DNA of 64,000 bases from Pseudomonadota bacterium (GCA_038757945.1 JBCDGJ010000002.1:24186-88185); one strand, 5' to 3'; numbered from the stretch's first letter, positions 5,492 to 50,524 are shown. Notes: generated by a model from the letters alone, not told the origin. Numbers and translations are program-made.

Positions 5492-6598
5492 GTGCCGGAA
5501 CAGCTGACGCCTGAAGCCGAACGCTGGCGCGACTGCGCTGACCGCTTCGCGCTGGACGTGCTGCTGCCCCTCGCCGACACGCCGGCTGCCGACGCCAGGC
5601 CGACGATCATCGAGCAGTCCCAAGCCAGCGGTCTCTACACGCTCACGCAGCCGGCCGCCTTCGGCGGCAGCGCAGCCGATCAGCTGACGCTGTGCGCAGC
5701 GCGGGACGCGCTGATGGCCCGGAACCCGCCGCACAGCAGCGCTGTCTTCGGGCCGGGCCCCGGCGTCCTCGCCGGCGTCGACGAGCCACTACGCAGCCGT
5801 TATCTGGAGCCGCTGCTCAGCGGCCGGCTGCGGAGCGGTTTCGCCAGGCCCGACCCCGGCGCCGCGCCGCACTTTCCCCGCGCGGAGCCGACCGCCGAGG
5901 GTTACCTGGTGAATGGGCAGAAGTCCTACGTCACCGGCGGTGCCAGCGCCGACTTTCTCAACACGGTCGTACAGATCGACGACAAGCCGGCGCTCCTGAT
6001 TATCGACACGGCGCAGGAGGGCGTGGAACGCGAGCGTGTCTTTCAATCCATCGACGGCAGCCAGCACGCCGCCTTCCGTTTCAGGAACGCTCTGGTTCCC
6101 ACCACCAACCTGCTGGCTGCGCCCGGCGCCGGCATGCCAAAAGCGCTCGGCCAGATCGGCGACACGCGCCTGATGATCGCAGCCAACTGCGTCGGGCTCA
6201 GCCGTTGGGTGTACCAGCAGCTCTGTGAACATCTGGACCAGCCCGCACGCGGGGGCGGCCAGCGTGGCGACGATGCGGTCGCCCGGCTGCGGCTCGGGGA
6301 ATGTTACGTCGCGCTCTTTGCCGCGCGCAGCATGCTGTACCGCACCGCGCGCCTCGCCGACGGCGGTGACCGGGCCATCAACGAAGCCATGGCGTGCAAG
6401 GTATTCGCGGTAGACACGCTGACCCAGCTCATCGACAGCGGAATTCAGCTCATCGGCGGCGGCGCCGTAGTCGAAGATCATCCGCTGGCGCGCCTCTACC
6501 GCGAAGTGCGCAGCCTGCGGCTGGCGGAAGGTGCTACAGACCAGCTGCTGCGCAACATCGCGCGTGGGCGGTTGGAGCTCGGAAAAGGGCGTCTCTGA
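5492..6598 (+). CDS. Acyl-CoA dehydrogenase family protein
   Basis: ACAD-like motifs GQKSYVTGG, ACKVFA and YREVRSLRLAEGATDQL. 368 aa. The start is uncertain. Confidence 0.75.
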   Translation: MPEQLTPEAERWRDCADRFALDVLLPLADTPAADARPTIIEQSQASGLYTLTQPAAFGGSAADQLTLCAARDALMARNPPHSSAVFGPGPGVLAGVDEPLRSRYLEPLLSGRLRSGFARPDPGAAPHFPRAEPTAEGYLVNGQKSYVTGGASADFLNTVVQIDDKPALLIIDTAQEGVERERVFQSIDGSQHAAFRFRNALVPTTNLLAAPGAGMPKALGQIGDTRLMIAANCVGLSRWVYQQLCEHLDQPARGGGQRGDDAVARLRLGECYVALFAARSMLYRTARLADGGDRAINEAMACKVFAVDTLTQLIDSGIQLIGGGAVVEDHPLARLYREVRSLRLAEGATDQLLRNIARGRLELGKGRL

Positions 6599-39877: not shown

Positions 39878-41494
39878 TCAGGAGCTACAGGACAGCTGAG
39901 AGCAGCCAACGCGGGTGCGCGCCCAGTCCGGCCGCTGTTCCGCATAGCGTTCGCAACCACTGCGTTCCTCGAACGGCGTGCGCAGCAGCGCCTGAAGGGT
40001 CAGCAACTCGGAGAAATCACCAGCCTCGGCACGATCAATAGCCTGCTGAGCGAGGTAGTTCCTGAGCACGTAGACCGGGTTTGCGCTGCGCATGCGCTCG
40101 TGACGCACCTCCTGATCGAGCCCGGCTGCTGCCTGCTGGTAGTCGGCCAGCCATGCTTCCCAGTCTGCCTTGACCGCGCCGGTCAGCTCAGTCGTTGCAT
40201 AAAACGCTGGTTCGAGGTGCGCAAGCGCGGCTGCCGGTGTGGTCACCAGGGGGAGCGTATTGAGGCGGCGAAAGCAGATCGTCATGTCCGTCTCGATTTG
40301 TGGCAGCAACGCCTCGAGCCGCGAGGCCAGAGCCACGACCGCTTCGCTGGGCTCGGCGAAGCCGAGCTTCTGTGCCATTGCCTCGGCATAACCGACGTTG
40401 AACTGCTGCGAAAACCCATTCACCGCTTCCTGCAGGGGCTCGAGCGTCTCGATCAACGGATAGAGCGCATTGGCAAGTTGCGCCAGGTTCCAGTGGGCGA
40501 CCGCGGGCTGCTGTCCGTAGCGGTAACGGCGGGTCGCCGCATCAGTCGTGTTCGGCGTCCAGTCCGGATCGAAGTCGTCGAGCCAGCCGTAGGGTCCATA
40601 GTCGATGGTCAGACCGGTAATCGACAGGTTGTCGGTGTTCATGACCCCGTGCACGAAGCCGAAGCGCTGCCAGTCGACCAGCAGCCGCGCCGTGCGCGAC
40701 ACCACCGTTGCGTACCACCGCAGATAGTCTTCCGGACCAAGCGCTTCCCCGTCCCGCTGCGCACTGCTCAGCAGCTCTGGAAACTCCGTGCGGATCACGA
40801 AGTCCGCCAGGGTACGCAGCAGCGCTTTGTCCCCCCGGGCGGCCGGTAACTCGAAGTGGCCGAAGCGTACGAAGCTGGACGCCACCCGGCACACGACCGC
40901 ACCCGGCTCCAGAGCCGCGTTGCCATCGTAGAGCATGTCGCGCAGCACGGACTCCCCCGTGAGCACGAGCGCCAGCGCACGCGTGGTCGGAACGCCGAGA
41001 TGATGCATAGCCTCGCTGCAGAGAAACTCACGGACCGAGGAGCGCAGTACCGCGAGCCCATCGGCCATCCGGGAGTACGGCGTTGGCCCAGCGCCTTTGA
41101 GCTGCAGCATCTGATGGGCGCCGGAGGGTGTCACGATTTCGCCAAGGTTGATGGCCCGGCCATCGCCGAGCTGACCGGCCCAGTTACCGAACTGATGGCC
41201 GCCGTACACGGTGGCGTGCGGATCCATACCCGCGAAGGTCGCGTTACCCGCCATCACTGCCAGGAACTCGTCGGACGCGAGCAGCTCGGGGCTGAAACCG
41301 AGCTCGGTCGCAAGATCTTCGCTGACCGCGATCCGCCGTGGCGCGCTGACCGTCTGCGGCGTTACGCGCGAATAGAGCGCAGCGCTGACCTGGCGCCGCT
41401 CGTTGGCGGTTTCCGGATCGGCCGGCAGCGCGCGGGTAAAACGGTTATCAAAGGTGAGTTCAGCGGCCAGGCCCACGACGAGCACCCCAGTCAA
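39878..41494 (-). CDS. selO: Protein adenylyltransferase SelO (YdiU/UPF0061)
   Basis: FDNRFTRALPADP...YGGHQFGNWAGQLGDGRAINLGE...LQLKGAGPTPYSRMADGLAVLRSSVREFLCSEAMHHLGVPTTRAL is the SelO signature. 538 aa. Confidence 0.9.
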   Translation of the reverse strand: MTGVLVVGLAAELTFDNRFTRALPADPETANERRQVSAALYSRVTPQTVSAPRRIAVSEDLATELGFSPELLASDEFLAVMAGNATFAGMDPHATVYGGHQFGNWAGQLGDGRAINLGEIVTPSGAHQMLQLKGAGPTPYSRMADGLAVLRSSVREFLCSEAMHHLGVPTTRALALVLTGESVLRDMLYDGNAALEPGAVVCRVASSFVRFGHFELPAARGDKALLRTLADFVIRTEFPELLSSAQRDGEALGPEDYLRWYATVVSRTARLLVDWQRFGFVHGVMNTDNLSITGLTIDYGPYGWLDDFDPDWTPNTTDAATRRYRYGQQPAVAHWNLAQLANALYPLIETLEPLQEAVNGFSQQFNVGYAEAMAQKLGFAEPSEAVVALASRLEALLPQIETDMTICFRRLNTLPLVTTPAAALAHLEPAFYATTELTGAVKADWEAWLADYQQAAAGLDQEVRHERMRSANPVYVLRNYLAQQAIDRAEAGDFSELLTLQALLRTPFEERSGCERYAEQRPDWARTRVGCSQLSCSS

Positions 41495-43349: not shown

Positions 43350-44303
43350 TCAGCTCGACGCCTGGCGCCGACGCCGCGCCTCTCCTGCCGCCCGGAGCGC
43401 CTCGCGGTTGCTGTCATCCACCCGCGCGTAGTTGGCCCGCCAGCTTTCGTCGTCGCGGAACTGAAACGGGCTGCGAACAGTCGTACGCGGCTCGGTAGCC
43501 ACGCTGAGCAGCTCCAGCGCCATCCCAACGTTCAGCGCCTGCATGGCCCGGTCTCCCGGTGGTCCGCAGGGGTTGCCGAGCGGAAAGTCGGTGAAGAGAA
43601 AGCGCGGCACCCCGCAGTACTCCACGACATCGAGCGCCGATCCCAGAACCACCGTGGTGATCCCATGGCTTTCGAGTTCGCGGGCAACCAGACTCACGGT
43701 CTGGTGACAGACGGGTCACAGCGGAACCAGCAGCGCGATATCCGCCCCCTCCTCCAGCGCGCCAGTGCGGATCGCCGGTGCGTCGTCCTCGATGGTCTGT
43801 CGCTGGCTGTACTCGGTGGGCACACAGAAGTAGCTTGCCGTGAGCGAACCCAGCCGGCCATCAGCCACCCGGGTTGCGAGCTCACGAAGCGGAAAATAGC
43901 TGGCGAGGTCCCGCGTGTGGGTCGCTTCCTTGTCCCAGGACAGATCGTCGGTGTACAGCGCCGATGGCGGATCGGCCACCGGTCGGCGCGCCAGCGCTTT
44001 CTTCTTAAGGAGCGTGGCACCGATAGGCGTATCACCGGTGGTGGCCGCCGCCGACTCGCGCAATGGGCTCGCCGTGGTGACCAGAACCAGCCTTGCTTCG
44101 GACAGCGGTTTGCGCAGGGGCGTAAACGGCACGTCTTCGAAGTGTGCCCAGCGGTAAGACCGGGCATACCCCTGTGCCTCGTAGAACAGGCGTGTGCGTT
44201 CCATGTAGCCCACGGGTGCACCGGCCGGTAGCGCTAGTGATCTGTTTCGGTCGCTGTTCATCTGTGGCCTCCCCAAAGATCTCTCTTGCGGCGGATCCCC
44301 CAC
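43350..44303 (-). CDS. Candidate selenoprotein of the GrdB/PrdB (glycine/sarcosine/betaine/D-proline reductase selenoprotein B) family. An in-frame TGA at 43716-43718 is read as selenocysteine. The N-terminal start is uncertain.
   Basis: Track ORFs 43716..44303 and 43350..43697 are in the same frame. They are separated only by TGA plus 6 codons. Read-through gives ...EGADIALLVPL-U-PVCHQT-VSLVARELESHGITTVVLGSALDVVEYCGVPRFLFTDFPLGNPCGPPGD. This creates a U-x-x-C redox motif and a PLGNP motif shared with GrdB/PrdB-family proteins. A stable hairpin (ACCAGAC-CGUGA-GUCUGGU) begins about 12 nt 3' of the UGA, which is consistent with a bacterial SECIS element. Confidence 0.55.
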
Positions 44304-44436: not shown

Positions 44437-44513
44437 GGCTACGTAGCTCAGCTGGTTAGAGCACAGCATTCATAATGCTGGGGTCGTTGGTTCAAGTCCA
44501 ACCGTAGCTACCA
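44437..44513 (+). tRNA. tRNA-Met (CAU), elongator type (tRNA-Ile2 with lysidine-modified CAU cannot be excluded)
   Basis: GGCTACGTAGCTCAGCTGGTTAGAGCACAGCATTCATAATGCTGGGGTCGTTGGTTCAAGTCCAACCGTAGCTACCA. It folds as a cloverleaf with anticodon loop TTCATAA and an encoded CCA. Nearly identical to E. coli elongator tRNA-Met. Confidence 0.8.
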
Positions 44514-44897
44514 TTCAGATCAAGAGCTTAAGCTGGCCGGTGCCGTTCTTCGATTCCCACCACGAATTACCCCCGGCGCAACAGAACCCAGACCGCTAGT
44601 TGCTGGCGCTTCCTCTCTCAGCCAACACCCGACGATCTCCTGCAAGGTGGCGACCATGCTCCACCGGTCCTGATTCAGCGGTAGTCAACACAACCCGTGT
44701 CTGAGGCGTGAGAACCGATGCCAATTCGTCAACGGGTGCGACCACGGCAGGTATCGCGGTGCTTTCCGGACGAGAGTGGAAGCGTCAGCCAACTACCCCC
44801 ATTTCCGGCAGGCGAGTGCAACCGGCAGGCGTTTCGCCGAGCGATCTCGTGGGAGAATGAGGAGCGACGGACAGAGCCGGTGAGCAACGATCAAAAC

Positions 44898-45294
44898 CAT
44901 GGCCACTGAAGACGGAATTGCCGCGCGCATTCGGGTGGCGCGAGAACGAGCGGGGTTGGATCCGGCAGAGCTGCGGAATCTGCTGAGCGGGCGTGGTATC
45001 GAACTGTCCAAGGCCGGGCTGCACAGGCTGGAGACTCAGGATCCAAAAAATCCGAATCTCAGACAGATCGAAGTGATCGCTTCGATCACCAACGTCTCCC
45101 CAGCGTGGATTCTCTTCGGCGAAGGATTGACCACACCGCCGGACCAGATCGGCCTGGCGATCCGGGGTCGGGTCATCGATACCATCGAACTCATGATTGG
45201 GGCGCTCGATCTCACCGCCCGCCAGGAGCAGACCATCGAGCGCTGGCTGAAGTCGGTTCGCGAGACCAAACCCACGGTAACGCAGAAACCCTAG
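44898..45294 (+). CDS. XRE-family helix-turn-helix transcriptional regulator (phage-repressor-like)
   Basis: 131 aa. An N-terminal HTH_XRE-like segment (IAARIRVARERAGLDPAELRNLLSGRGIELSKAGLHRLET...). It sits about 385 nt downstream of the tRNA-Met. Confidence 0.6.
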
Positions 45295-45603
45295 CTGCGG
45301 CTGTTCACTTTTCCTGTACTTTCGTCCACTTCAGTGTTGACAGCCAGTCAGCCGCCCGTATACTCCCGCGCCATGACTCATCAAACCGGACAACTCGGTA
45401 GCTCAATCGCTGCCACTCGGCCCTGGCGTATGCCTGCTCTGACCCCTGGTCTCGGCGGCGTATGCCCGTGCGTGATGGGTGCCTATACGCTGATGAACGG
45501 TGGCTCGCTCTTCGTTCAGGGCAGAGGCCCCATGTTCTAGCCTTCCAAGGAGTGGTGTCCTGGGGGGCTCGATGCGTCGAACCTTCCAGGAAAACTCCCA
45601 GTG

Positions 45604-45640
45604 AGAAACCCCGGATGGTTCACACCTCCGGGGTTTTTTT
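45604..45640 (+). terminator. Rho-independent terminator
   Basis: aaaCCCCGGAtggttcacaccTCCGGGGttttttt. A 7-bp GC-rich stem is followed by a T7 run on the plus strand. Confidence 0.6.
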
Positions 45641-45844
45641 GTGCCCCGGATTTGCTCTTTAACAATTTGAACCGTGTAGACGCTGGGGCGGAGTTCTTCG
45701 TTGCGAAGGGCTGCGGCCGACAGACCGTCGTGCGCGTGCGCGCGCCCGCTCCAGACGTAAGGGCTAACGGACCCCGATTGGGCCAGGCGGCTGTCTTTGA
45801 AACAGACCGTTGTTCAATTGAGGCTCAGCGTTAGCTTGAGTTTC

Positions 45845-45930
45845 GGAGAGGCATTCAATGGCGAGCTACCCTGGCTGTAGCCCAGGCGCCCGGTTGGGCT
45901 TTGTGGGTTCGACTCCTACCCTCTCCACCA
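45845..45930 (+). tRNA. tRNA-like element of type II (long variable arm) with a possible GUA (Tyr) anticodon and a non-canonical D-arm
   Basis: GGAGAGG...CCTGG-CTGTAGC-CCAGG...GTGGG-TTCGACT-CCTAC-CCTCTCC-A-CCA. Acceptor stem, anticodon stem and T-arm pair well. The D-arm does not fold canonically. Confidence 0.35.
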
Positions 45931-46470
45931 GCTTCAGAGTCATCGGCATCGCTCGAGGCTCTGAATAGCGGCCTGGCGCTGCTAACCGTCAACAACGGCG
46001 GGAAAGGAACGCTCCCACGGCGTTTCGCCGGGACAGTAGTCCCGGTCACTCCAGGCATGTTCGGCCTCCGGTAGTCCTCGGTACCGCCGGGGATAGCGGT
46101 GAAACGATGCGCGGAAGTAGCGTGGTTTACGCACCGGCGAAGGCCGGGAATGCGGGCCCGCGAAAGAACACATGGTGGTGCGCCCCGCGACACCAACGTC
46201 GTCAACCGTGAGAGGTAACGAATAGTGCAGTTCAGTGCGAGCTCCGCAGGCAAGCGCGACTGTGCAGAGGGCAAGGGTTCTGGCGTCCAGCCAGCGTCCG
46301 GGTCATCGGTCCAGTAGCCGGCAGGTGAAGGACAGTCGGCGTGTCGTGTTTCGTCGCCCGGAACGTAACGAAGCGGCTGAAGCACGCGCGTCGTAGTGGG
46401 AACAGGACTCCGCTCGGCAGTAGCGCAGCAACCAGCGGCCGGCTCAAATCCAGTGTTTCAGATCAGCGAC

Positions 46471-46545
46471 GCGGATATAGCTCAATGGGAAGAGCGTCTG
46501 ATTACCAACCAGATGACCTCGGTTCGAACCCGGGTATCCGCTCCA
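46471..46545 (+). tRNA. 75-nt tRNA with a canonical cloverleaf and an unusual ACC anticodon (Gly-decoding by anticodon). There is an A-C mismatch at base pair 31-39.
   Basis: GCGGATA-TA-GCTC-AATGGGAA-GAGC-G-TCTGA-TTACCAA-CCAGA-TGAC-CTCGG-TTCGAAC-CCGGG-TATCCGC-T-CCA. All arms fold. The anticodon-loop positions 34-36 read ACC. Confidence 0.55.
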
Positions 46546-46550
46546 TTCAA

Positions 46551-46638
46551 GGAGGCTCGCAAGGCTGGCGCGCTTATCGGTCTCGAGAATCGTGATGTCT
46601 GAATAGACGTGTAGGTTCGATCCCTACAGCCTCCGCCA
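46551..46638 (+). tRNA. Type II tRNA, probably tRNA-Ser (CGA), with an imperfect anticodon stem
   Basis: GGAGGCT...CGGT-CTCGAGA-ATCG...variable hairpin GTCT-GAAT-AGAC...GTAGG-TTCGATC-CCTAC-AGCCTCC-G-CCA. 88 nt. The anticodon loop CTCGAGA resembles that of E. coli serU (CTCGAAA). Confidence 0.5.
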
Positions 46639-46965
46639 GACTCTGGCCATCGGGTAGGAATCTGCAGGCCTACCTGCCCTGGCTACAGGCGCCGCTCGGT
46701 CCGATTCCGAGGGCGGCCACCAGCTTCGGGCTCGACGCATCGACGGCGCGGCCCAACCGTATCCGTCCGTCGCCTGCCGCAGCGCAGGACTCGCACCCAC
46801 CGGTGCTTGTATCGGTTCCAGCCCGACTCGGACCAACGAAGTTAGACCAGCAAACGACGCTCTGCGGTTCGGATTCTGATTCCGTCCGGCGCACTCACGC
46901 CTCTATCGCACTAGTGCGGTATTGCACGGTGTGTACCGAGCGCTCCGTGAGCCTCTAACTACCAC

Positions 46966-47038
46966 GGGAAATTAGCTCAGCGGGTAGAGCATCAGACTCA
47001 TAATCTGACGGTCGCAAGTTCGACTCTTGCATTTCCGA
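46966..47038 (+). tRNA. tRNA with a CAU anticodon (Met or Ile2) and a possible G1-G72 mismatch
   Basis: GGGAAAT-TA-GCTC-AGCGGGT-AGAGC-A-TCAGA-CTCATAA-TCTGA-CGGTC-GCAAG-TTCGACT-CTTGC-ATTTCCG-A. The anticodon stem and T-arm are perfect. CCA is not encoded. Confidence 0.55.
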
Positions 47039-47580
47039 CCCCTTAGCCAAAGTGGTCCCCTGGTAAAGGCGCAAGCCTGCGGTTCGAATCCGCTCCCCGG
47101 CGTGGACAACGCCTCACCGTGTTCGCCGCCGGCGGTGCTGCCAGCATGCCTTCGGGCCATCTGGCAGCACTGCAGCACGAATGCCGCCGATTAATGATCC
47201 GCCGGTTGATCCAGCGTAACGCCCGCTCGACGTCCGCCAACCCTCATGCGCTGCCTGTGCAGGTGCTGGGGGAAGGCCGCCGTCCTGCGCGCACGACGTT
47301 CGAGCAGTCGGTGCCATTCATCCGCGTCACTCCTGTGGCGGCGAGCACACTCTCTCGACGACGTTCGCTCACGAGGTGAGACGAACGAGCTCCATTAACA
47401 ACCCACAGCACCCAAAGGAGGTGATTCAGCGTGGTCGGTCTCAAACGACTGGCAGAAGCAGAACGACGGATTCTCGAGCGCAACGCTGGCCATGGACCGC
47501 ATGCCCGGCCAGCGCTCGAGCCCCGTCTGACCCAAGGCCCGTCACCGGACGGAAACACCAAAGAAGGAGGAGAACGCACC

Positions 47581-48723: not shown

Positions 48724-49105
48724 TTCGGCCCCTGGGAGGGCGTACTCTGCGCCCTCCCGGTTTTTATCTGTTCGCACTCGCAAGCGATCGACGACGGGCT
48801 TTCAACCGGAAGAAGCGCACCCGACGGTTTCTTGCCGCTGGCGCATCGGCCTGAGTGCCAGGATTCGCACCCCGCGCAACCAGCGGAGGAGCCCAGAGAT
48901 TCACACCCCTTTGAGGTGCGGCTACCCGAAATAATGGCTCGGAGCCCAATCAACTGCTTAGAGTTGACCCCGGCAAGTGCCCAGCGCAGAGTACCGCGCT
49001 GGACAGAACGCAAAGGTTGCAGTTCCAGCACTCGACACGAATCTTCGCCGGTATTCGAGGCAATCAGCGCTCTCAGCGAACCATTGCCGCCGAGGAACCC
49101 ATTAC

Positions 49106-49843
49106 ATGAAAACAGAAAACGGCAATCCGGCTGACGCGGTCTATGACGAACTGCTCCCAGGTGCACGCAACTGGTCGTTCGTGCTGCGTCGCGGCTTTGC
49201 GCTTCGCTTGACCGATCCGCGCGGGGGCGGCAACTGCTCAGCCCTCTTCTTCAACGCCCAGGAGAAGCTGGAACGGTACAACATGGCGGACACACTGAAG
49301 GCTCAGCACACGGCTTTTCTCACTCGAGGACACGTATGTTACTCAGATATGGGTCGCATCCTGGTCTCGATTGTCGAAGACACCTGCGGCTGGCACGACC
49401 CGATCGGTGGAATCAGCAACGCCCGCCTGGTGCGGGAACGGTTCGGAGAGAACCGCTATCAGGAGGCACGGAACGCGTTCTATCGCGATGGCCGCGGGCT
49501 GTTTCTAATCGAGATGGGAAAGTGGGGCCTGGGGCGCCGTGATCTCATCGCCAACGTCAATTTCTTCAGCAAGATTACCGTGACGGACGGCGGCGAGATG
49601 CAGTTCAATGCGGACAATTCACCGGCGGGTTCCTATGTCGACCTGCGTGCTGAAATGGACACCCTGATCGTGCTCAACACCTGCCCCCACCCCCTGGATC
49701 CGTCGACGGAGTGGGCGCCAAAGCCGATCAGGCTCACTATCTTTCGCACGCCGCCCGCAGCTGAAGACGACCTCTGCAGAACGAGCTGCCCGGAGAACCG
49801 TCGCGGCTTCGAGAACACCGCCATCTACCATTGTCAGTACTGA
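49106..49843 (+). CDS. DUF1989 urea-carboxylase-associated family protein (UAAP-like), copy 1
   Basis: About 245 aa from [51 protein letters not shown]...DTCGWHD...NARLVRERFGENRYQEARNAFYRDGRGLF. The upstream 43 track codons are intergenic. Confidence 0.75.
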   Translation: MKTENGNPADAVYDELLPGARNWSFVLRRGFALRLTDPRGGGNCSALFFNAQEKLERYNMADTLKAQHTAFLTRGHVCYSDMGRILVSIVEDTCGWHDPIGGISNARLVRERFGENRYQEARNAFYRDGRGLFLIEMGKWGLGRRDLIANVNFFSKITVTDGGEMQFNADNSPAGSYVDLRAEMDTLIVLNTCPHPLDPSTEWAPKPIRLTIFRTPPAAEDDLCRTSCPENRRGFENTAIYHCQY

Positions 49844-49855
49844 GAGCACTTCGCA

Positions 49856-50524
49856 ATGCCTACACTGAATACGACGAGTTCCTTAAACCCGGCAGACGCG
49901 GTCTACGACTACACGATCCCCGCCGGTGAACCCTGGCTCCACGAAATGAAGGAGGGTCAGACGCTCCGGATCCTGGATCTGGAAGGAAATCAGGCAGTCG
50001 ATACCCTCTTCTACAATGCCCACGATCCTGGCGAGCGTTACAGCGCTCAGGACACGATTCAGGCACAGGGCAGCATCTATCTGACCGCCGGCTCTCGGCT
50101 GCTGTCGAACGCGGGCAACCTGATGCTGACTATCACCGCCGATACCTGCGGACGCCACGATACCCTCGGTGGTGCCTGTGCGGCCGAGTCGAACCAGGTC
50201 CGTTATGCGCTTGAGAAACGCCCGATGCACAACTGCCGCGACAACTATCTGCTCGCGCTGGCGGAATCGGACTACGAGATGGGGAAGCGGGATCTGACCA
50301 GCAACATCAACTTCTTCATGAACGTTCCGGTCACACCGGACGGCAAGCTGACCTTTGAGGATGGCATCTCCGAAGCAGGGAAGTACGTCGAGATGCGTGC
50401 CGAGATGGATGTCATCGTGCTCGTGTCGAACTGCCCGCAGCTCAACAATCCCTGCAACGCCTACAACCCGACGCCTGCACGGATGCTGATCTGGGACAAC
50501 GCGGAAACCTCAACGATCCAGTAG
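49856..50524 (+). CDS. DUF1989 urea-carboxylase-associated family protein, copy 2 (paralogue)
   Basis: Parallel to the upstream gene: [43 protein letters not shown]...DTCGRHD...[10 protein letters not shown]...[19 protein letters not shown]. Confidence 0.75.

Follow-up and report, generated by a model that had tools for sequence, protein, structure and literature searches.

A single minus-strand gene in the 64,000-nucleotide stretch of Pseudomonadota DNA analyzed here (the window) very probably encodes one 303-residue cytoplasmic selenoprotein of the PrdB/GrdB superfamily, in which an in-frame UGA would be read as selenocysteine (Sec) by way of a SECIS element and which would act as a stand-alone reductase (Table 1). 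At the level of sequence comparison, both the recoding of the UGA and the presence of the SECIS element are well established by the evidence from relatives, and the two open reading frames (ORFs) seen at this place are almost certainly one gene of 303 codons whose in-frame TGA encodes Sec. The gene adds one more member, mis-annotated until now, to a known selenoprotein family.

One reading frame across an in-frame TGA

The preliminary description of this DNA had noted two adjacent minus-strand ORFs, 43716..44303 and 43350..43697, in the same frame. Reading of the sequence confirms the common frame, interrupted by nothing but the TGA, which is followed by six sense codons (CCC GTC TGT CAC CAG ACC) before the GTG at 43697 that is listed as the start of the second ORF. 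Translated through the TGA, the joined product reads ...LLVPL-U-PVCHQTVSLVARELESHGITTVVLG...FTDFPLGNPCGPPGD and carries the proposed U-x-x-C motif, which runs from Sec182 to Cys185. Both gene halves have coding-type GC (GC3 0.74 and 0.79), like the window's other genes. At the 5′ end, the first ORF had been taken up to a GTG at 44303, but the true start is most likely the ATG at 44261, because a GGGGAGG sequence at a distance of 6 nt, the NCBI start of the 181-residue call and the N-termini of homologues all agree on it, giving a product of 303 residues. The expected failure of gene callers is borne out: callers yield exactly two pieces, and the NCBI annotation here consists only of a truncated 181-residue 'hypothetical protein', which can now be corrected to the front part of a 303-residue selenoprotein.

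Table 1 Features of the selenoprotein gene in the window
Feature	Position	Strand	Description and basis
Shine-Dalgarno-like GGGGAGG	44268-44274	-	6-nt spacer to ATG 44261; read from sequence
Complete selenoprotein gene, PrdB-like	43350..44261	-	303 codons before the stop, one of them UGA (Sec); product ~33 kDa
Putative selenocysteine codon TGA, residue 182	43716..43718	-	Codon comparison across related loci; aligned with PrdB Sec
U-P-V-C redox motif	43707..43718	-	Sec182 to Cys185, then invariant H-Q-T; translation, homologue and PrdB alignments
Extended SECIS	43684..43708	-	Two more pairs, G11-C35 and U12-G34, below 1x1 internal loop; RNAfold MFE
SECIS core hairpin	43687..43705	-	7-bp stem ACCAGAC/GUCUGGU, loop CGUGA (43694-43698); covariation, Sec-versus-Cys comparison
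P-L-G-N-P-C-G loop, residues 227-233	43563..43583	-	Third conserved Cys; invariant in 58 sequences
True stop codon, also TGA	43350-43352	-	No SECIS after it; no second covariance-model match nearby

Related loci are consistent in what they carry at the TGA position. Of 160 related loci, 131 have TGA at the aligned codon, 29 have TGT or TGC, and none has anything else; among the 80 closest loci in species-representative genomes, TGA occurs in 75 and TGT or TGC in five; and a metagenome scan seeded with an alignment of Cys forms still returned 56 TGA and 24 TGY forms among 80 loci. TGA carriers are found in Gamma-, Alpha-, Beta- and Deltaproteobacteria, Myxococcota, Thermodesulfobacteriota, Chloroflexota and Spirochaetes. 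In proteins, Cys occupies the TGA column in all 57 full-length homologues, within an invariant L-C-P-V-C-H-Q-T, and the Sec of bona fide PrdB falls in the same column (LLTAG-U-GTCH versus LLVPL-U-PVCH; MAFFT alignment with the annotated PrdB of Terrisporobacter and Peptoclostridium). The question raised at the outset, whether Sec or Cys aligns at the U position, is thereby answered with TGA or Cys in all 161 relatives examined and Sec in PrdB. Conservation also continues past this column. A protein search returned about 1,755 homologues. Among the full-length ones conservation is strongest downstream of the TGA, where at least 30 residues are invariant and the window gene keeps all of them, and a full-length alignment with 57 homologues (~291 residues, 50–58% identical) contains 59 invariant columns, found both before and after the TGA.

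Nearly all variation in the six codons that separate the TGA from the GTG is synonymous (CCC/CCG/CCT, GTC/GTG/GTT/GTA, TGC/TGT, CAC/CAT and CAG/CAA), and the P-V-C-H-Q-T that they specify is invariant as amino acids. This pattern of variation at synonymous sites means that the codons are translated in this frame, and translation past the TGA in turn leaves practically no room for a restart in a split gene, for a pseudogene or for a sequencing error. We therefore regard it as very improbable that translation stops at the TGA to give a 181-residue protein and restarts at GTG 43697 to give a separate 115-residue protein, even though gene callers give exactly these two pieces and GTG stands at that codon in 128 of 132 TGA forms while being variable in Cys forms. 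Apart from the in-frame translation of the intervening codons, a compensatory change from CAG/CUG to CAA/UUG fits RNA pairing and not a restart, and every read-through homologue has Cys in the TGA column, where PrdB has Sec. Less probable again is that a Cys-type gene acquired the TGA by nonsense mutation, or through an error of sequencing or assembly, which would make the locus a pseudogene or an artefact. Only one base separates TGC or TGT from TGA, and the source is a MAG, but the same TGA is present in 131 independent loci, the window gene has the synonymous signature of Sec forms (ACC GUG AGU CUG GUU), and its downstream frame is intact, with every invariant residue kept.

A SECIS-type hairpin and the Sec machinery

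In the mRNA, the preliminary description had pointed to a hairpin, ACCAGAC-CGUGA-GUCUGGU, about 12 nt past the UGA. The hairpin is present at this place, conserved, covarying and specific to TGA-carrying members of the family; with the U of UGA taken as nt 1, its stem starts at nt 14, so that the spacer measures 10 nt instead of ~12. Among 76 TGA forms, 94% of the stem cells are paired, four pairs have double-sided changes, the loop bases C21, G22 and U23 are invariant, and the covariation score was reached by none of 500 shuffles. In the extended structure, pair 12-34 is C-G in 28 sequences, U-G in 28 and U-A in seven. The GTG listed as the second ORF's start coincides with G22-U23-G24 of the hairpin loop.

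Comparison of Sec and Cys forms ties the hairpin to the TGA. A perfect 7-bp stem is found in 112 of 132 Sec forms and in two of 29 Cys forms, and the Ser codon is AGU or AGC in a ratio of 118:3 in Sec forms and of 3:25 in Cys forms, with the limit that formal P-values for such Sec-versus-Cys comparisons are inflated because 23 of the 25 placed Cys forms belong to one clade. Bases 18 and 28, which are the third base of a Gln codon and the first base of a Leu codon, form G-C in 95 Sec forms and A-U in 36, with a single mismatch; the changes are synonymous on both sides, and the two positions are uncoupled in Cys forms. Two Cys forms with TGT or TGC, at loci L079 (about 6463-6510) and L140, still have a perfect SECIS-type hairpin, and this retention makes them look like recent Sec-to-Cys conversions with a 'fossil' SECIS.

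A covariance model of the hairpin region, which had been suggested as a check, was built from 75 relatives without the window gene and matches 43671-43718 of the window at 71.6 bits (E = 3.7e-12), the next best match in the 64 kb reaching only 16.5 bits. The significance of the hairpin comes from these comparative data and not from its folding energy, which taken alone is unremarkable (-14.5 kcal/mol, z = -1.43; RNAfold). Rfam SECIS families gave no match, either at gathering thresholds across the whole window or at permissive thresholds across 43620-43760. An alternative hairpin that had also been proposed, GUCUG-UCAC-CAGAC, finds no support in the comparison and was rejected: its pairs do not covary, 20 of 72 sequences break pair 9-18, and 174 of 500 shuffles score equally.

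The E. coli fdhF-type SECIS is a hairpin that lies within the coding region, some 11 nt past the UGA, with G-U in its apical loop. The element described here is like it in being an in-coding hairpin shortly past the UGA and in having an apical-loop G-U, but differs in its family-specific sequence and in showing no obvious bulged U in the upper stem.

The presence of a selenoprotein gene implies that the organism uses selenocysteine. Within the 64-kb window, tblastn with E. coli SelA, SelB and SelD found no selA, selB or selD, ARAGORN and Rfam found no tRNA-Sec, and a scan for in-frame-TGA gene pairs with a coding signature found no convincing second selenoprotein. Across the 160 loci, tblastn with the same three proteins returned only a SelD homologue in L065 and a weak GTPase match in L038. 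The former, on a MAG contig (L065 8915-9808), is 36% identical to E. coli SelD, lies about 2 kb past the end of the family gene and is the only sel gene seen beside any family member in the loci searched.

A window in which no Sec machinery was found could also be taken to mean that the machinery has been lost and that the UGA is read through without selenium, by insertion of Cys or Trp, and the Cys forms with an intact hairpin (L079 and L140) do show lineages leaving the Sec state. This reading is nevertheless highly unlikely, because in lineages that leave Sec the codon becomes TGY and the hairpin is lost afterwards, whereas the window gene retains both its TGA and a perfect hairpin. From the intact frame, the kept invariant residues and the perfect hairpin, we infer, as the most economical explanation, that the window organism has a working Sec system.

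The search for tRNA-Sec did bring up a sub-threshold Rfam match at 46551-46634 (32.3 bits versus a gathering value of 47). Its anticodon is CGA, so the tRNA at 46551-46638 (plus strand, 88 nt) is a tRNA-Ser and not selC. At 46471-46545 on the plus strand, ARAGORN calls a tRNA-Gly that has an unusual anticodon, ACC (A34), and a mismatched anticodon stem, and that may be odd or element-borne. Both lie in a segment, 44437-47040, that is flanked by two tRNA-Met genes (44437-44513 and 46966-47040) and contains an HTH gene (44899-45294), ~1.1 kb without a coding signature and a strong terminator-like hairpin near 45610-45642; 45845-45930 gives a weak match (21 bits) to part of a tmRNA. The segment may be the remnant of an integrated element.

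Relation to PrdB and GrdB, and genomic neighborhood

The protein had been described as a member of the GrdB/PrdB family, and profile and sequence searches make it a remote relative of PrdB and GrdB. Its best NCBIfam match is PrdB (TIGR04483, E = 3.8e-17, profile positions 20-236 of 238), at a score of 62.5 bits that falls below the 300-bit equivalog cut-off, and weaker matches to GrdH (E = 4.5e-4) and GrdF (E = 0.023) cover its C-terminal half. A plasmid tblastn search reached the annotated prdB of Terrisporobacter, Enterococcus raffinosus and Peptoclostridium at 25–28% identity (E = 2e-9). Pfam gave no match for the window protein, with PF07355 not reached at E <= 1; PF07355 matches some of its relatives. 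Database names follow both relationships: PGAP calls Cys relatives 'glycine/sarcosine/betaine reductase selenoprotein B family protein', and JGI calls many homologues 'D-proline reductase (dithiol) PrdB'.

The window protein and PrdB (TIGR04483) are homologous over nearly their full length, share a Sec placed in U-x-x-C-H after a hydrophobic strand, and have in common the helix that follows Sec and the 'GIPTV' strand. They differ in length (303 versus 241 residues), the window protein having ~25 extra N-terminal residues and an extra C-terminal Arg-rich helix of about 35 residues, and they differ in their motifs, with YDNGD, FMGGGGNQ and PMGANAG in PrdB set against WDKExTHT, VPTEYSQRKT and FPLGNPCG in the family, where WDKExTHT, VPTEYSQRKT and the longer FTDFPLGNPCG are invariant. 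The PLGNP sequence, earlier recognized as a motif of GrdB/PrdB-family proteins, is thus invariant within its own family, but the two aligned PrdB proteins have P(M/I)GANAG instead, in an alignment that includes no GrdB. Similarity to GrdB, GrdF and GrdH (PF07355, TIGR01918) is weak and confined to the C-terminal half; compared with GrdB, the window protein is about 130 residues shorter, and its gene has no grdA, grdE or grdC nearby.

The neighbors of the gene in the window are SelO, an AI-2E transporter, DUF4149, tRNA-Met and an HTH protein, and the earlier statement that no Grd or Prd partners lie nearby holds for the window. tblastn with PrdA and PrdH found neither in the window nor in 163 related loci (flanks of up to 5–6 kb on each side, many contigs being shorter), and the same PrdA query did find PrdA beside the true prdB of L165. 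In L163, from which both query proteins were taken, the true prdB sits in a prdA-prdH-prdB operon.

These observations bear on the most obvious alternative, that the protein is a genuine PrdB subunit of D-proline reductase whose PrdA pyruvoyl subunit is encoded elsewhere. The JGI name, the label used by Zhang et al. in 2005 and 2008, the identity of the best NCBIfam match and the alignment of the TGA with the Sec of PrdB are all as this alternative would have them, but we give it only a slim chance: the score is far under the equivalog cut-off and identity is low, PrdA and PrdH are missing from the window and from 163 related loci, the glycine-rich motifs of PrdB are replaced by family-specific ones, there are extra segments at both termini, and the carriers belong mostly to aerobic proteobacterial lineages of soil and ocean. 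The window protein is thus probably not a D-proline reductase component, and the lack of PrdA, the sub-threshold score and the distinct motifs argue instead for a separate orphan subfamily.

Neighbor clustering across 80 loci revealed no conserved neighbor of the family gene. Individual sub-clades, in at most eight loci each, have biotin carboxylase, acyl-CoA synthetase, CoA-transferase III, enoyl-CoA hydratase, LLM oxidoreductase or SDR genes beside it, and in eight loci, mainly from Burkholderiales, the family gene adjoins a gene of biotin carboxylase type, about 1,100 aa in length. An AMP-binding neighbor is present in 7 of 160 loci, which by a rough estimate is about the level expected by chance. 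Gene fusions provide a different kind of association. In P0125 (805 aa), P0272 (813 aa; L166 1141-3582) and P0122, AMP-binding and AMP-binding_C domains are joined to a PrdB-like domain that belongs to a sister Cys subfamily (PNCPVCHQ, no third Cys), and these fusions, which come from two or more independent clusters, may hint, in the Rosetta-stone sense, at a joint action of the domain and an adenylate-forming enzyme. P0138 is a fusion of a Ser/Thr kinase with a PrdB-like domain.

SelO is a protein adenylyltransferase (PF02696) that targets redox proteins, and 1.9 kb separate its gene in the window (39878-41494, minus strand) from the selenoprotein gene. A plasmid of Roseomonas haemaphysalidis carries a Cys paralogue of the PNCPVCHQT type that directly adjoins SelO (L164 6893-8365). 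No SelO is found nearby in the other ~160 loci, and because the adjacency is limited to the window and the Roseomonas plasmid, it is probably a coincidence. Two tandem DUF1989 genes (48977-50524, plus strand), of a kind that often bears the annotation urea-carboxylase-associated protein, are found about 5 kb away from the gene for the selenoprotein.

Spread, naming and proposed function of the family

In a neighbor-joining tree analyzed by Fitch parsimony, Sec is the ancestral state and was converted to Cys three times, one of these conversions having founded a clade of 23 Cys forms. The family is broad, with 158 clusters at 50% identity (E <= 1e-30), and is mostly Sec-containing among the closest relatives. 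Its Sec codon continues to mislead annotation. When 1.84 billion cluster representatives were searched, ~34 of the best 150 ended just before the Sec and ~17 started 2–7 residues after it, with fragment ends at profile position 156/157 and fragment starts at 160/165. Because fragments pile up at the Sec codon, split gene calls must be systematic for the family, and with about a third of the best 150 representatives being fragments of this kind, callers are evidently still splitting it. The TGA form with an intact hairpin is also present in a cultured type strain, Reyranella soli NBRC 108950 (L061 6481, NZ_BKAJ01000040.1), which makes experiments feasible.

Although the window gene had been presented as a 'hidden' selenoprotein, its family has been a listed selenoprotein family since 2005 (PMC1088965). 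The supplement of Zhang, Fomenko and Gladyshev (2005; PMC1088965) files it as 'Proline reductase PrdB' and contains the same U-PVCHQT sequences, among them AACY01093821 (...LLVPLuPVCHQTVGLVARHLESNGIPTV...FTDFPLGNPTG), so the family is not new. In that study the Sargasso Sea data held 42 family sequences, making it the third most abundant selenoprotein family (PMC1088965), and in the GOS data 235 selenoproteins and 110 Cys homologues with the UxxC motif were counted, which again placed it with the most abundant selenoprotein families of the sea (Zhang and Gladyshev 2008; PMC2398784). A 2006 survey listed a 'proline reductase' selenoprotein in Anaeromyxobacter and Geobacter, and recent reviews still place the family under D-proline reductase. 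The window gene and the 'PrdB' of marine metagenomes belong to the same family, with no family-level difference between them, and the papers label that family D-proline reductase; it has carried this name for 20 years without a PrdA partner.

How might the protein be made and function? We propose that the UGA is read as selenocysteine during translation and that, by analogy with other bacteria, the mRNA hairpin 10 nt past it would recruit SelB•GTP•Sec-tRNA(Sec) to the ribosome. The product would have a Rossmann-like α/β fold with Sec182 at the end of a β-strand and Cys185 within the first turn of the next helix. In an AF2 model of the Cys homologue P0002 (pLDDT 84, pTM 0.85), the motif lies between β-strand 151-155 and the N-terminus of helix 161-174, and low pLDDT in the same model suggests that the PLGNPCG loop is flexible. 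Reviews give the UxxC motif for both PrdB and GrdB, and the Sec of C. difficile PrdB is at position 151 (PMC11229817). By homology with Sec151, Sec182 could serve as the catalytic nucleophile, with Cys185 resolving the adduct as a selenenylsulfide that would then be re-reduced by a thiol system. As the family has no PrdA/GrdE pyruvoyl partner and has invariant motifs of its own, the family protein is most likely a stand-alone selenol/thiol reductase with a substrate other than D-proline.

More broadly, we lean slightly toward the view that the 'PrdB' of ocean and soil is a stand-alone selenoenzyme that has no pyruvoyl partner and catalyzes an undescribed reductive reaction in mostly aerobic bacteria. 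Its substrate might be a carboxylate that an adenylate-forming enzyme has activated, an idea that derives from the AMP-binding::PrdB-like fusions of the sister Cys subfamily (P0125 and P0272). If the stand-alone view is true, then the 'PrdB' of the surface ocean and soils, which ranks with the most abundant selenoproteins there, would not be a subunit of proline reductase.
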